Virus record (IMG/VR): IMGVR_UViG_3300029825_000001
Span: 69,558-133,557 of that record
Direction: 5' to 3' (one strand)
Source of the DNA: a virus
DNA length: 64,000 nucleotides
A program made the position numbers and the translations under genes. The notes beneath the pieces are model-generated. The model saw only the letters and a program-made list of their open reading frames with translations. It was not told the origin of the DNA and made no database searches. Below, piece after piece: positions 20,674 to 51,421 of this stretch (the stretch's first letter is position 1; every line of letters begins with the position of its first letter).

Positions 20674-21747
20674 ATGAGTAATTTAGTAGAAAATATAAAT
20701 ATAAATACAAATAATATAGTTGGATTTAAAAACGATTCTATAAAGGAATCATTTGATGTATTTCTAAGCGAATATAAAAGTGAAAATACAAAAAAGAATT
20801 ATACTAGATATATTAATCAAGCTTTTATGTATTTGATTGGTAAAGATATTAATACAATATCATTATCTGACATTCAAAATTTAAATCAAGGTGATATAAG
20901 AAAATATAGAAGTTATTTAAGGCAAAATTATAAAGACAATACTACTAACCAAATGATATTTGCATGTAAAGCATTTTTTGACTATCTTATTGATTGTGAT
21001 AAAATAAATAAAAATTGTTTTCACATTAAAAAAATTAAAACTGAAGAAGTTGAAGTAAATTATGGTTCACTTACTGAATCAGAATTAGAAGGATTATATA
21101 ATTATTGTTTAGGTCTTAAAGATAGAGGAATAACCAAAAAGTTATATTTTGAATTTTTAGCTACAGTTACATGTAGAAAGTCTGTTGCACAAGAACTTAA
21201 GTTTAATGATATAGTGCGTAAATTAAATCCTAGTGATGGAAAAGAATATTGGGTTATTAATTCATTTGATAAAACTAGAATTGTAGATAGAGCTATTACT
21301 GATGAATTTTATGATAGACTTAAAGTCAATTTTGATTCTTATGATTGGGTAGACCAAAAGAAAGGTCTTATATTTAATGTTGGAGATAAGACTTTAGAAA
21401 AAACATTAAACGATTATTGTAAATTTGTAGGTATTGACAAGAAAGGTAGAAATATTGTTCAACATAGTATTAAATCTAGTGGATTAGATATTATTCAAGA
21501 TGCTTTTGGAGATATTAAGATTACTGCTAAAGCTGGAGGTCATGCAAGTATACAAACACCTTATAAAAAATATATTGGTAAGAATACAGATTATTCTCTA
21601 CAACCTAGTATCTTATTATCAGATAGAAATAATATGAATTGTTTAGATGAATTGAGCAAAGAACAATTATTAGATTTAGTGAAAAATAGTGGAATGATTA
21701 CTTTTAATAAAATATGTGCTAATGCAGAAAAAAGAGGTTTGATTTAA
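20674..21747 (+). CDS. Tyrosine recombinase / integrase family protein
   Basis: N-terminal SAM-like domain (SENTKKNY); catalytic set R (TCRK), K (DKT), HSIK (H-x-x-K instead of R), GH, Y (PYKKY); promoter TTGACT-16-TATAAT at 20573-20600. Confidence 0.85.
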   Translation: MSNLVENININTNNIVGFKNDSIKESFDVFLSEYKSENTKKNYTRYINQAFMYLIGKDINTISLSDIQNLNQGDIRKYRSYLRQNYKDNTTNQMIFACKAFFDYLIDCDKINKNCFHIKKIKTEEVEVNYGSLTESELEGLYNYCLGLKDRGITKKLYFEFLATVTCRKSVAQELKFNDIVRKLNPSDGKEYWVINSFDKTRIVDRAITDEFYDRLKVNFDSYDWVDQKKGLIFNVGDKTLEKTLNDYCKFVGIDKKGRNIVQHSIKSSGLDIIQDAFGDIKITAKAGGHASIQTPYKKYIGKNTDYSLQPSILLSDRNNMNCLDELSKEQLLDLVKNSGMITFNKICANAEKRGLI

Positions 21748-45925: not shown

Positions 45926-46497
45926 AAATAGATTATATGATTTATTATGAATGGGTTTATAAAACCCAATAGAAGATAAGTTTTATTTTGATTACACATC
46001 AATTAAAATAAATATAAAATCTTAAAACAGCAAAACAAAAAGGAGATATATAAGATGAACAGGAATTGGAATAATATTAAGATAGTACCTAAAGATAGTC
46101 ATTTAGAAGTTTTTAATGCAGATAATAAGTTCTTATTCTCAGCAGACAACATGGAAGAAGTTTATACTGAAGTTAACAGTCATATATTGCACTAAATAAA
46201 AAATATCAAACGTCTTAAAACAATATAAAATGGTTAGATAGTAAAAATAAATTATATTTTGCTTAGATAACCAAATAAAAACTCACATGAAAATTATAAT
46301 TATATGTCTAAATATGTCGAAAAATATCATAAAATACCATAAATATATAGTTAACAGTCATATCCCCTTATTGACTTTTTGCTATATGAGGTCTAATATA
46401 TTAATATAAATAAAAAATATTTTAGATATATGGTCGGAATTATCTGAAAATATTTTCCCCTAGACAATATGCACAAAAAGGTGTATATTAGTTTTTA

Positions 46498-46511
46498 AGA
46501 ACAGATGTTCT
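46498..46511 (+). promoter_or_regulatory. LexA/DinR SOS box
   Basis: AGAAC-AGAT-GTTCT immediately downstream of promoter TAGACA-17-TATATT (46461-46489). Confidence 0.7.
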
Positions 46512-46542
46512 TAAAAAGTAGAACAAAGGAGAACGAAGAAAA

Positions 46543-47013
46543 ATGGTTAAATTTCAAAGCATTAGTAGTTTCAATCAAATACTAGATGAATTAACAGACC
46601 AAACAAAATGTAAAATTAAATTTACAAAGAATGACATCAAGCTATTACATAATAATATTACAACAGAGGATAATTTAAATAATTTTACATGTTGGTTTAA
46701 TGTTTTTAAAGATTTCTATACTCCAAGTCGTATAGTAAAAACCTATATAGAATATGGTCAAGAAAAGTATGGACAAACTTTGAGTAGAATTATTGAAATG
46801 TATAACAAGTTAGTTAAATATCATGTAGTAAATCCATTTAATCGAATGTATGACATAACTTTATTTGAATTACAAGATTTAATTAAAAATGAAAATGATT
46901 GGGATATGTTTTATCAGGTATGGCAAGAAATGAAAGATGATTATTGTTTTGGCAAAATCTTGTTTAGATTTAAGCAGAGCAAGATTGAGAGGTTAAAATG
47001 TGAAGCTAGTTAA
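46543..47013 (+). CDS. Hypothetical protein, predicted SOS-inducible
   Basis: 156 aa with AAGGAG RBS after the LexA box. Confidence 0.65.
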   Translation: MVKFQSISSFNQILDELTDQTKCKIKFTKNDIKLLHNNITTEDNLNNFTCWFNVFKDFYTPSRIVKTYIEYGQEKYGQTLSRIIEMYNKLVKYHVVNPFNRMYDITLFELQDLIKNENDWDMFYQVWQEMKDDYCFGKILFRFKQSKIERLKCEAS

Positions 47014-47143
47014 AAAAGAACTGAACAAAATAAAAAATATTTTAAAAAACACTTGACAATATATTTTTTGTGTTGTATTATTGTATCTACAAAGACAAAT
47101 AATATAAATAACACAAAAAATATATTGAAAGAGGTGTAGATAT

Positions 47144-47758
47144 ATGAATAAGGGGATTAATTTAGAAAGAGGACACATTTACATGTGTAATTTAGGTGAA
47201 ACTGTAGGTTCAGAACAGGGTGGAACTAGACCAGTTCTTGTAATTAAAAATCAAAAGGGAATAGATAATGGTAGTGTAGTGACAATCGTTCCAATTACTA
47301 GCAAAATTAATAAAGGTAAGAAATTGCCAACGCATATTTCTGTTGGAACAGAAAGTGGCTTATTAGTTGATAGTGAATTACAAGTAGAACAGACTACAAC
47401 AAAAGATAAAGAAAGATTTTTATTCTGTAATAAATATAATAATAATTATGAAGTTAGAAAACTTGGGGAAGTATCTGACTACATATTGAACAGAGTAGAA
47501 ACAGCATTGTCAAAAGACACAGGCTTTATTGAATTGTATTTCAATGAAAAACATGCTTATCATATATTAGATATGCTAACTTCAGCTATGAAAGCTAATT
47601 TAGACGAAATAAAAAACCATTTCATACATGAATTTAAAAATTATTGTGAACAGTATAACAAAGATTATAAAACAGTATTAAGCTATTACAAAGCAAATAA
47701 AACTATGAATATAACAGATGATTTATGTGTTGTTTCATGCGGACATAGATGTTCATAA
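47144..47758 (+). CDS. mazF: MazF/PemK (EndoA-like) endoribonuclease with C-terminal extension
   Basis: RGHIYMCNLG..VGSEQGGTRPVLVI...VPITS...LPTHI...EQ...DKER; about 70 extra C-terminal residues; promoter TTGACA-17-TATTAT at 47053-47081. Confidence 0.9.
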   Translation: MNKGINLERGHIYMCNLGETVGSEQGGTRPVLVIKNQKGIDNGSVVTIVPITSKINKGKKLPTHISVGTESGLLVDSELQVEQTTTKDKERFLFCNKYNNNYEVRKLGEVSDYILNRVETALSKDTGFIELYFNEKHAYHILDMLTSAMKANLDEIKNHFIHEFKNYCEQYNKDYKTVLSYYKANKTMNITDDLCVVSCGHRCS

Positions 47759-47796
47759 TTTTTAAATACAAAACTAAATAAAAAACTAAAAACCTC

Positions 47797-47825
47797 TTGA
47801 ACATACTACTGTAAAGTAGTATAAT
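47797..47825 (+). promoter_or_regulatory. Promoter with palindromic operator for the DndB-like/MrpR-like operon
   Basis: TTGAAC-17-TATAAT; perfect ATACTACT-GTAA-AGTAGTAT palindrome at 47803-47822. Confidence 0.7.
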
Positions 47826-47859
47826 ACATATTGATGTTTACAGGAGGTGTAATTAAAAT

Positions 47860-49191
47860 ATGATTAAAAAAAGAAGTGAACTCGAAGCGATAATAGACAA
47901 AATTATTAAAGTTAACAATACAAAGCAAGACATTGTTAAACCATTAAAAAAGAGTTTATTGGAACATAATATTAGTATTGGTGAGTTTCAAAGTATTTGG
48001 AATAAAAATAAAACACTAGATTCTATTGATGACTCTACATTATTTTTACTTACTAAATATTTATATGAATTAACACTTGAAGAAAATATAAAACCTGAGA
48101 CTTATTTTACTGAAACTGAAATAAGTGATGGTAATAATTATAAAAGGGAAATTGTCAGTGATATGATAGAATTACCTATTACTTTTGATGAAGTTATAAA
48201 AGTAACAGATAACCAATATATCACTACTTTAAGTATTCAAAAAATTAAGCAGTTACAAGATAGTAAATTAATTAGTTATAATTTTGATGCACAAAGAAAT
48301 CCTAAGTATAAAATAGATAACGAAGGTGAATTAATCAAGGTTGCTAATATTAAACCACAAGCTGTTAAAGAAATTTCTGATGATATGGTATCTGGAAAAT
48401 TTATCCCTAACACTATTACTTTAAACATATTACAGAATGGTGAGGAAGATTTTGTATTTGATGCAAAAGCACATGAATTAACTATAACACGTGGTATGAT
48501 TAATATTATTGATGGATTCCATCGTGAAATGGGGTTAATTGATGCTATCGGACAAAATGAAAGTTTAGACTTCCCTATGGAAATACGTATAACAAATTGG
48601 GATATACAGAAATGCCGTAATTTTATTCGTCAAGAATCTATTAGGAATAAAATTGATACAAAATATTTGTCATCTGTTATTAATGTAGATAAATGGGGTA
48701 ATAAAGTAGTTAATAAACTTAACGAAGGGCAATGTGATTTAAAAGGTAAGATTACCACTGATGTGGTTGTAATAAGAAAAAATAAAGCGTATACTATGTT
48801 TGATTTAATGTCTGATACAATTGATTTATTATGGGATATCAAAACCAATATGGATGTTAATAATTTGGCAAAATATTTAACAGAGTTCTTTGATTATATA
48901 GTAGGATATAAAGTTGAAGATTTTATTGAATCTTTATCAGAATCAAAAGAAAAAAGCGTTGTGACTTATCCAGCTATGTTTATTGGATATTTAGCAATTG
49001 CACATAAATTAGAAAAAGATAAAAATTGGCAAGATAAGTTAAGAGAATTTTTAGATAATACTGATTTTAGTTTAACTAATCCAATTTGGAAAGAACTTGA
49101 TATTATTGACAACAATTCATCTTTAGTTTTAAATATTAGAAAGTCAGGAAAGAAACATATTGTAAATTATTTTGTTACATTAGTTAAGTAG
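47860..49191 (+). CDS. DndB/ParB-like DGQHR-domain protein (SPbeta YopQ/SroE-like)
   Basis: FIPNTITLN and IIDGFHR motifs; directly upstream of MrpR-like gene as in SPbeta. Confidence 0.75.
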   Translation: MIKKRSELEAIIDKIIKVNNTKQDIVKPLKKSLLEHNISIGEFQSIWNKNKTLDSIDDSTLFLLTKYLYELTLEENIKPETYFTETEISDGNNYKREIVSDMIELPITFDEVIKVTDNQYITTLSIQKIKQLQDSKLISYNFDAQRNPKYKIDNEGELIKVANIKPQAVKEISDDMVSGKFIPNTITLNILQNGEEDFVFDAKAHELTITRGMINIIDGFHREMGLIDAIGQNESLDFPMEIRITNWDIQKCRNFIRQESIRNKIDTKYLSSVINVDKWGNKVVNKLNEGQCDLKGKITTDVVVIRKNKAYTMFDLMSDTIDLLWDIKTNMDVNNLAKYLTEFFDYIVGYKVEDFIESLSESKEKSVVTYPAMFIGYLAIAHKLEKDKNWQDKLREFLDNTDFSLTNPIWKELDIIDNNSSLVLNIRKSGKKHIVNYFVTLVK

Positions 49192-49205
49192 AAAGGGGTG
49201 TAAAA

Positions 49206-50207
49206 ATGTACAATGCAGAACTTAAAAACAGATTTTTAGAACAATATAGTAATGTTAAAACAAGAAAAACATATAGTGATAGTTTGAGCCAAATTAATGA
49301 TATGGAAGAACTATATGATAAAGACGTATTTCTTTTTACTTATGAGGAATTACATGAAGCTTTGAATGGAATTAGAACAAAGACATCTTCTGGAGCAGGA
49401 AGAATTATATCGCCTATTATGAAATATATAGATTTTGCAAATGAAGAAGGTTATGTTCCATCAAAAATAACTTACACAAAGTTGTTTAAAGGGAAAAAAC
49501 TAGAAGAATATATTTCATCTTACGCTTTAAATAATAGTTATATTGTAAGAGATGAATTATATGATATTTGCTCATATCTAACAAATGATATGGATAAATC
49601 AATTTTAGTAATGGCTTTTGAAGGAATTGATGGTAGGGAACATTTTGAAATGAGAAATTTGAAAAAACAAGATATTAATTTTAGTACAGGAGAAGTAGAA
49701 GTAACTAATATTGATGGAGAGATTAGGAAAATTACCATTGAGGATAAAAGAAGTTTAGATATACTTGAAGATACTATAAAAGAAACTGAATATAAGTTCA
49801 GTAATGGAGCAGAACTATTAAGAGCAAAAGATGATATTTTAGAAAATACTCCTTATTTATTAAGAAGAGTAGAAAGCAAACTTTCAAATACAGAAATAGA
49901 AGATGAACGAGTAACATCAAATTTCTTATCTTGCAAGGTTACAGTATTCTTTAAAGGTAAAAAAGTAAAAAAGAATATAATTGCTGACCCTCCGTATGTG
50001 CCAAATTATCAATTTCTCAACATAACTAATGTTTTTAAAAGTGGATTCTTTGATTATTGTACACAATTAGAACAGAAAAAAGGAATTAAATTAGAAACAA
50101 AAGATTATAAAACGGCATGTGAAAGATACGGCATTAATCCTAATAATATTCCTTCTTATAAAAAACAATATCTTGATTGGAAAGAAAGAATCAATCGAAA
50201 GGGGTAG
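49206..50207 (+). CDS. mrpR: MrpR/YopR-like repressor (degenerate tyrosine recombinase fold)
   Basis: MYNAELKNRFLEQ...EELYDKDVFLFTYEEL...KYIDFA; LVMAFEGIDG replacing the catalytic Arg region. Confidence 0.75.
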   Translation: MYNAELKNRFLEQYSNVKTRKTYSDSLSQINDMEELYDKDVFLFTYEELHEALNGIRTKTSSGAGRIISPIMKYIDFANEEGYVPSKITYTKLFKGKKLEEYISSYALNNSYIVRDELYDICSYLTNDMDKSILVMAFEGIDGREHFEMRNLKKQDINFSTGEVEVTNIDGEIRKITIEDKRSLDILEDTIKETEYKFSNGAELLRAKDDILENTPYLLRRVESKLSNTEIEDERVTSNFLSCKVTVFFKGKKVKKNIIADPPYVPNYQFLNITNVFKSGFFDYCTQLEQKKGIKLETKDYKTACERYGINPNNIPSYKKQYLDWKERINRKG

Positions 50208-50210
50208 GGA

Positions 50211-50633
50211 ATGAAAGATTTACATGAAACTTTTATTGAAATGTATGAAAAACAACATTTTTTATCCTTTTATTTTCAAGAGATTAACAAAAGAGGATAT
50301 AGTATAAAAGAGACACAATATATTAAAGGGAAATTAGAAGTAATTGAAGAATTTATAGATAATTTATCTTATAGGGTATTACACAATTTATTAATGTCTA
50401 GTTCAAATAGACGGCTTGATAGAATAATATTTGGGGCAGAGAAAATAATCGAAATAATTCAATGCCCTGAAGACTTTAAATTAGTTATTGATTTAGATAA
50501 ACTTGATGATAATGATGTAAGGGATGCATTAGTTTTTAAAGATTTAAGACAGAAATATTGTTATTTTCAGCACAAAGAAAAATGTGAAATTGGACTTAGG
50601 TATATTAATAATAAATGGCAAGTATTATCTTAG
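50211..50633 (+). CDS. Hypothetical protein in repressor operon
   Basis: 140 aa, 3 bp after mrpR-like gene. Confidence 0.6.
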   Translation: MKDLHETFIEMYEKQHFLSFYFQEINKRGYSIKETQYIKGKLEVIEEFIDNLSYRVLHNLLMSSSNRRLDRIIFGAEKIIEIIQCPEDFKLVIDLDKLDDNDVRDALVFKDLRQKYCYFQHKEKCEIGLRYINNKWQVLS

Positions 50634-50653
50634 ATAATAGGGGGAATATATAA

Positions 50654-51067
50654 ATGAATTTTGGTGAAAAACTTGGTTATCAATTATTGAAAAATGGATA
50701 TAACTACTCTACAGAATTTGCTCCAAAGGTAGATTTGAGTGAAAAAACAATTAATCAATATAAAAGAAAAGAAACAGCAGACGGAATAGACGTAATGAGG
50801 CTAATGAAAATAGCTAATGCATTAGGTATATCATTGGATTATCTTATAGGAAATGATGATGAAAATGAAGAAATACAAATTGATGATTATAAATATATTA
50901 ATGCAAATAACATTGAAAGTATACAAATTGAAGATTTAGTTAATGAGATGAAAGCAATAATTAAAGATAAAGAATGTATTTTTAAGAATAAAGAAATTAA
51001 TGACGAGAAAAAATATCTTATTGATAGTTTAGATATAGGATTTAAATTAATAAAGCAGAACACCTAA
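50654..51067 (+). CDS. XRE HTH regulator
   Basis: FAPKVDLSEKTINQYKR....LMKIANALGISLDYLIG. Confidence 0.8.
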   Translation: MNFGEKLGYQLLKNGYNYSTEFAPKVDLSEKTINQYKRKETADGIDVMRLMKIANALGISLDYLIGNDDENEEIQIDDYKYINANNIESIQIEDLVNEMKAIIKDKECIFKNKEINDEKKYLIDSLDIGFKLIKQNT

Positions 51068-51421
51068 TCTGCTTTATTTTTTTATCATTTTCAAAATTAA
51101 TTGTGATAAATAAAAAAGTTTTAAAAAATATATTGACAAGGTAGGACGTGAGTGATATTATGATAAGTAGAAGAATTAAAAGATGACTATTTGTTAGCAA
51201 TAAAGGAATAAAAATTAATGTAGATGTTAATGGAAGTTATCAAATTATGGAAAAAGTATTCCCAAACGTCTTTGACAATGGGATAGAGGATTTAGGGTTA
51301 AATCTAATTAGAATAGATTTATAGAAATATCAATCGACTAACAAACATAGCTTATTAAAATTAATAAATAATATTAAAAATTTTAATAATTATGATAACC
51401 TGATGGTAAATTAAAGTAAAT

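Follow-up and report, generated by a model that had tools for sequence, protein, structure and literature searches.

The stretch of 64,000 nucleotides analyzed here (the window; positions 69,558 to 133,557 of the virus record IMGVR_UViG_3300029825_000001) carries a real and conserved variant of the SPbeta-type lysis-lysogeny switch, in which an RNase of the MazF family is encoded by the phage itself and arbitrium is missing. Tied to the repressor genes sroE and sroF, this phage-encoded MazF likely serves, in our judgment with moderate confidence, as a lysogeny-side filter of messenger RNA (mRNA). The record is linear, counts 135,434 bases and has a CheckV completeness of 85%, which bounds every negative result given below for the whole record (AimR, AgrB, TPR_12 and MazE/AimX/YosL). 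An earlier note on this DNA had proposed that the phage brings its own MazF into the switch; synteny, selection, residues and the cut-site pattern bear this out, whereas mazF proved not to be universal and a host enzyme can yield the same pattern.

Bacillus subtilis MazF, whose activation is not lethal, cleaves at U^ACAUA (10.64898/2026.08.06.743204); occurrences of this hexamer are indicated in the following description of the module, in which related loci bear L numbers and protein lengths are in amino acids (aa). All six open reading frames (ORFs) listed earlier were confirmed in position, on the + strand.

46461..46489, + strand: promoter-like site of the LexA-controlled gene (TAGACA-17-TATATT), similar in L001, L005, L006 and L066
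46499..46510, unstranded: LexA (SOS) box GAAC-N4-GTTC, directly 3' of the -10 hexamer
46543..47013, + strand: candidate SOS antirepressor, 156 aa, no family, UACAUA in the message at 46646
47053..47081, + strand: promoter-like site of mazF (TTGACA-17-TATTAT, 11/12), similar in L001, L005, L006, L007 and L066
47057..47127, unstranded: perfect 18-bp inverted repeat, candidate operator, arms 47057-47074 and 47110-47127, 53 bp apart
47144..47758, + strand: MazF-family endoribonuclease, 204 aa, PF02452 at residues 8-123 (E 3e-22), UACAUA at 47480
47797..47825, + strand: promoter-like site of sroE (10/12), a UACAUA starting at 47825, the last base of the -10 hexamer
47860..49191, + strand: SroE/YopQ-like co-repressor, 443 aa, DndB PF14072, PHROG 5732 (E 4e-93), UACAUA-free
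49206..50207, + strand: SroF/MrpR/YopR-like master repressor, 333 aa, MrpR_N and MrpR_C, integrase fold, UACAUA-free
50211..50633, + strand: unknown gene, 140 aa, no family
50654..51067, + strand: XRE-type helix-turn-helix (HTH) gene, 137 aa, HTH_3, optional in the family
51049..51078, + strand: terminator-like hairpin from a sequence scan, module end

The MazF assignment is well above threshold (79 bits against a cut-off of 23 for PF02452), and a model built from a deep alignment (pLDDT, or predicted local distance difference test, 91.7) superimposes on the RNA-bound B. subtilis enzyme 4MDX with a Foldseek template modeling (TM) score of 0.92. The catalytic arginine and threonine recognized earlier in GGTRPV and PITS are indeed kept as Arg29 and Thr52 (Arg25 and Thr48 in B. 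subtilis), and both are invariant across seven family members. When residues that contact RNA or read its bases are taken from PMC4041440 and PMC10864209, the former of which lists the side chains reading the UACAU core in Bacillus MazF, Arg25, Thr48, Ser19, Gln21, Lys53, His59, Ser73, Glu78 and Gln79 (B. subtilis numbers) are found in 7/7 members and Leu56 in 6/7; Leu stands in place of Phe69, a replacement shared by 87 of 88 short MazFs of clostridia. The ratio of non-synonymous to synonymous substitution rates (dN/dS) of the MazF domain, 0.09 and 0.14, falls in the range of sroE and sroF, and by this measure the phage MazF is under purifying selection. From these residues and the cut-site pattern described below, we infer an active RNase of low toxicity that cuts U^ACAUA.

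The protein thus resembles Bacillota MazF/NdoA (B. subtilis EndoA, 4MDX) in fold, catalytic pair and base-reading residues. Unlike EndoA, with which it shares about 35% identity, it has no adjacent mazE, ends in an 80-aa C-terminal extension, contains an insertion near residues 94-104 and belongs to a phage branch of its own (94 in the Shimodaira-Hasegawa-like approximate likelihood ratio test, SH-aLRT). The changes specific to the family concern the beta1-beta2 loop, Gln31, Asn36, the loop that follows and Arg81. Since the beta1-beta2 loop and strands 5-6 of MazF form the MazE-binding site in Staphylococcus aureus (PMC4041440), escape from host MazE is possible by analogy. As stated in the earlier note, no adjacent MazE partner can be recognized, the upstream 156-aa protein having no likeness to MazE, and a weak search (control E 0.005) of the whole record in six frames returned no MazE/AimX/YosL-like peptide.

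The distribution of the cut site, compared with counts expected from synonymous shuffles, forms the second body of evidence. UACAUA occurs 109 times in phage genes against 65 expected, which makes it the third most enriched hexamer, and the sense strand exceeds the antisense strand in this genome (109 vs 65). Over six modules, sroE and sroF together contain none (7.9 expected), UACAUA being the most depleted hexamer there, and the upstream gene in the LexA slot contains it in 6/6 cases, a score reached by only three hexamers. On a combined score UACAUA ranks 1/4096. A different cut site for this divergent MazF was sought by an unbiased scan of 5-7-mers, none of which beat UACAUA. Site density stands at 1.3 per kb for replication genes, 1.0 for late ones, 2.1 after ligase and 0.2 in the early arm of small genes, and falls to 0 from sroE to the XRE gene, in the integrase and in the sroD-like gene. 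The site at 47480 within mazF is common only to L066, and an element of Anaerovorax is the sole one with a site in sroF among seven close modules counted. The early arm, which spans window positions ~23400-46400, is UACAUA-poor as a whole, which suggests that the messages of its small genes must survive MazF.

Several observations weigh against the phage enzyme as the author of this pattern, or against its role as a filter. AimR-bearing Bacillus phages that lack mazF display this signature too (ratio 1.93; sro genes 0 vs 13), so that what the pattern records is selection by some UACAUA-cutting enzyme. MazF being present in about 80% of Bacillota (10.64898/2026.08.06.743204), the host enzyme could be the selector, at least in part. 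Gln31, Asn36 and often Arg81, near-invariant in short MazFs, are lost in the family; PMC4041440 assigns Asn36 a structural role, and another MazF mutated at this residue changed in specificity but stayed active (PMC8634880). Searches for SroA/SroB and for MazE/AimX/YosL-like genes revealed no off-switch for MazF, and mazF was not seen in 11 of 26 non-Bacillus sro-type records. Among non-Bacillus phages, those with mazF (n=12) reach a median enrichment of 1.73 and those without (n=7) one of 0.88 (p=0.001), in a comparison that is uncorrected for kinship and phylogenetically non-independent, in which several "without" records are incomplete and the groups overlap (G018, with, 1.04; G004 and G012, without, 1.3-1.4). 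Because enrichment tracks mazF ownership in these phages, the sequences favor the phage copy as the selector.

The repressor pair and the missing arbitrium components define the relationship to the known systems. In phi3T and SPbeta, the sro operon sroA-F (yopM-R, phi3T_92-97) operates with arbitrium and host MazEF (PMC10769878; 10.1101/2023.04.27.537455; PMC10516654). Here, yopQ-like and mrpR-like genes are adjacent in the SroE-SroF order, SroF being 24.6% identical to SPbeta YopR over 88%. Homology is clear, and by analogy with SPbeta SroE and SroF presumably hold the prophage silent. The six-gene operon is not present and sroE-sroF stand alone at the module; a sroD/yopP-like integrase-fold gene (window 20674-21747; E 2e-25 to Bacillus SroD; UACAUA-free) lies detached, 27 kb away, and SroA/SroB homologues were not found in this genome. 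The absence of arbitrium genes noted for the window extends beyond it, as AimR was not found in the whole record with two models (NF038310 and PF22871, both of which detected their controls), nor were AgrB and TPR_12. The region 5' of the module, where aimR resides in Bacillus phages, is uninterrupted and contains small ORFs besides a transposase-like gene; the two ends of the contig lie between ligase and a yorF-like replication block, where relatives carry small accessory genes. Like phi3T and SPbeta, the phage thus has adjacent sroE-sroF, an integrase-fold repressor, a serine recombinase and site-free repressor genes amid site-rich phage genes; unlike them, it encodes MazF, with an extension, lacks detectable AimR, AimX, YosL, SroA and SroB, and has its sroD/yopP-like gene far off.

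Pairwise structure prediction of MazF with the product of the LexA-box gene had been suggested earlier. A joint fold of SroF, a MazF dimer and the 156-aa protein, run with controls that included replacement of SroF, predicted no contact with MazF and association with SroF instead (score 0.79 vs 0.00 for all controls). All confident contacts of the 156-aa protein are modeled with the N-terminal and catalytic-like domains of SroF, at least 85% of contacts agree between antirepressor-SroF runs, and partner pLDDT is at least 84. The mark used for binding scores is attained by 58 of 80 solved pairs, against 2 of 110 mismatched ones, which lends support short of proof. The product of 46543-47013 is therefore predicted to bind SroF, and we consider it a candidate SOS antirepressor rather than a MazF partner. 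An AimX-like antitoxin was rejected as its main role, as the MazF dimer was untouched in the joint prediction and the score dropped to 0.00 once SroF was replaced.

Small SOS-controlled antirepressors are known from the Sar proteins phi3T_99 and SPbeta YopT, in which a beta-sheet dimer mimics DNA through acidic residues (10.1101/2025.11.27.690993). Like Sar, the candidate is encoded by a small LexA-box gene near sroF and is predicted to contact the N-terminal and catalytic-like domains of SroF. Unlike Sar, whose gene lies 3' of sroF, it is encoded 5' of mazF-sroE, has a net charge of +1 and apparently consists of two copies of a ~75-aa unit, of which two relatives possess a single one. It has no family and no likeness to solved chains, nor does it match by profile the 99-aa product of a Bacillus phage LexA-box gene that was equated with Sar because it lies 3' of sroF. 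The gene that occupies the slot in L005 is unrelated in sequence, yet it has both a LexA box and UACAUA.

As for regulation, the elements of the LexA-box repressor module and their order were as first described, but they probably do not form a single LexA-controlled operon: mazF and sroE have promoter-like sites of their own, so LexA probably governs mainly the first gene. The promoter scan as a whole returned sites at chance level, those of mazF and sroE being placed alike in relatives, and it was accompanied by no terminator-like site between the LexA gene and mazF. The box at 46499-46510 is the only exact one in 135 kb; because ~0.8 would be expected by chance, its evidential value rests in placement and recurrence, exact boxes lying 31-52 nt 5' of the matching gene in 5/6 related loci (L001, L003, L005, L006 and L066). 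It is missing from L007 and L054. The inverted repeat at 47057-47127, with one arm within the mazF promoter, has no exact match elsewhere in the genome and hence is not a genome-wide operator; L066 and L001 retain it, the other four loci do not, and among mazF-carrying close relatives is it is limited to the three with the XRE gene. The 140-aa gene co-occurs with the XRE gene (L001, L066, L054, L017 and L024) and is missing from L003, L005, L006 and L007.

Taken as a lysogeny-side filter, the phage MazF would operate as follows. In the lysogen, SroE and SroF would keep the prophage silent, and MazF made from its own promoter would cut leaky transcripts of the antirepressor, replication and late genes; the messages of sroE, sroF, XRE and integrase, being free of the site, would escape, which would favor lysogeny and set the threshold of induction. 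With a six-base site, a dedicated antitoxin may be dispensable. Upon DNA damage, LexA would leave the box at 46499, synthesis of the 156-aa protein would outpace the cutting of its message by MazF, and by clamping SroF, as its predicted binding implies, the protein would launch lytic growth. The phage enzyme would thus substitute for the phi3T layer of host MazF, SroA/SroB and AimX. Our best guess is that MazF is overcome in lytic growth by shut-off at the inverted repeat together with saturation by target messages, the extension acting as a docking site for a regulator; self-cleavage at 47480, host MazE and a ligand of the extension are further candidate off-switches.

The same observations can be read with the host system at the center, the phage protein titrating host MazE or forming mixed dimers so that host MazF is freed, as SroA/SroB do in phi3T, and the host enzyme writing the pattern. 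Consistent with this, mazF occupies the slot of sroA-D in Bacillus phages in a genome where no SroA/SroB homologue was found, the chromosome of Anaerovorax, a related possible host, carries mazF together with a short mazE that resembles AimX, and host MazF alone gives the same signature in Bacillus phages. However, complete retention of the catalytic and base-reading residues would be superfluous in a mere sponge, the changes in the beta1-beta2 loop and at Arg81, near the MazE-binding surfaces of S. aureus MazF (PMC4041440), suggest weaker MazE binding, and the signature is mostly missing in non-Bacillus phages without mazF, all of which makes this explanation unlikely. The pro-lytic converse, in which the divergent enzyme would poison host MazF by forming mixed dimers with it, would take the place of AimX/YosL and would be co-induced by read-through from the SOS promoter, seems very unlikely: the active site has been conserved intact, a strong promoter-like site belongs to mazF itself, and enrichment in cut sites is higher, not lower, with mazF ownership. 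It would nevertheless account for the failure to find an AimX/YosL-like gene in a genome rich in cut sites, for the missing terminator-like site upstream of mazF and for the changes at Gln31 and Asn36.

It is also quite unlikely that mazF stands outside the decision of its own phage, as an accessory for superinfection defense or control of host growth that sits beside sroE-sroF merely to be expressed in the lysogen. MazF-like genes are common cargo of gut phages (67 records), MazF restricts phi3T mutants devoid of antitoxin (10.1101/2023.04.27.537455), and mazF, with its own promoter-like site, can be lost or placed elsewhere. Cargo of this kind leaves unexplained why the phage's own genes are enriched for the cut site, the repressor genes spared and the antirepressor always hit, and why the link with sroE-sroF persists across deep branches of the SroE tree.

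The C-terminal extension seen earlier on MazF was confirmed as 80 aa of helical sequence, the domain covering residues ~7-126 and three helices residues ~135-198. Its dN/dS of 0.11-0.29 is within the range of sroE and sroF. The proposal that it is a fused inhibitor or sensor found no support: the extension is modeled as a generic three-helix bundle, and searches detected no Pfam family, no Atlas match at 0.9 or above and, among structures, nothing better than generic helical bundles (best Z 5.9). A known sensor or a MazE-like inhibitor is thus unsupported by family, Atlas and structure searches, which do not prove its absence. A profile of the extension alone retrieved 14 further proteins, of which nearly all are fusions to MazF (an additional N-terminal domain is present in some) and the rest are short pieces; two of the four with context lie 3-4 kb 5' of sroE-sroF, the other two contigs being short. 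In distant relatives, MazF, in some cases with an extra N-terminal domain, is encoded beside AgrB cassettes or directly 5' of ~200-aa tetratricopeptide repeat (TPR) genes, near sroE-sroF (L017:2381-5416, L059:4906-9410, L024:2984-4178, L055:4334-5616 and L028:8484-9626). These neighbors hint that the extension is a docking site; an agr or TPR input was not found in the present genome, as both AgrB and TPR_12 were negative over the whole record. Possible, though doubtful, is a broader scheme in which the extension is a signal-input domain and the phage-made RNase the decision hub across clostridial SPbeta-type phages, arbitrium giving way to diverse inputs (TPR protein, agr-type peptide cassette, HTH fusion or, in this phage, some ligand of host or phage origin), and in which a satellite family captured the new antirepressor to induce its helper.

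Six full-length MazF orthologues, 49-65% identical, were found, and the synteny is conserved, the order small gene-mazF-sroE-sroF recurring in 6/6 relatives with context (five orthologues and a later close relative). In a survey of 26 non-Bacillus sro-type virus records, some of which are near-duplicates, many incomplete and four with only a SroF-like gene, AimR was present in 0/26 and mazF in 15/26; the two Bacillus records tested both have AimR and lack mazF. A mazF beside sroE-sroF is therefore common, not required, although the linkage spans deep branches of the SroE tree. Inside the mazF clade of that tree (98/92) nests the Anaerovorax element, a ~19 kb remnant devoid of mazF and LexA box, so its lack of mazF reads as a loss. 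In a separate phage group, a ~140-aa MazF lies directly 5' of a distant SroF-like gene, with no SroE match in the locus (L051:5537-6951, L052:95-1529 and L053:5544-7005). The host mazE of Anaerovorax encodes a ~55-aa peptide that resembles AimX (E 0.004; L154:6243-6410).

The serine recombinase encoded in the 135-kb record makes the phage most likely temperate, and its closest named SroE relative, from Anaerovorax odorimutans (58% identity), points to an anaerobic member of the Clostridia as host. TGACC/GACCA are the most over-represented pentamers on coding strands over the whole genome relative to synonymous shuffles (z about 9), perhaps as a by-product of restriction-site avoidance.

A satellite-like integrated element found in two copies (L063:6049-16363 and, in Anaerovorax, L149:7136-17051) carries homologues of the 46543 gene as well, placed first behind its repressor and lacking a LexA box. 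The element comprises an integrase, an XRE repressor, the divergent antirepressor homologue, an HNH-like gene and a tail-like gene about 60% identical to the one in this phage. The L063 element lies 3' of guaA, shares several DNA segments with this phage at 73-100%, and its antirepressor homologue is 84.6% identical in DNA to the 46543 gene. By analogy with P4 epsilon, the satellite homologue would fit a captured helper-inducing factor.

A literature search whose coverage mostly excluded subscription journals returned no description of sro genes accompanied by a MazF that the phage itself encodes; the comparison of phages with and without mazF, the divergent MazF subfamily, the predicted antirepressor and its homologues in satellite-like elements are what the present analysis adds. 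The candidate would be a second, apparently unrelated antirepressor for SroF. In phi3T, the choice between lysis and lysogeny goes via host MazF, and how MazF favors lysogeny is only partly explained. With a phage family that possesses the enzyme, exempts its repressor messages and tags that of its antirepressor, the mRNA-filter model becomes directly testable with few genes in a laboratory strain. Such a family also suggests that the MazF filter, rather than arbitrium, may be the more general core of SPbeta-type switches.

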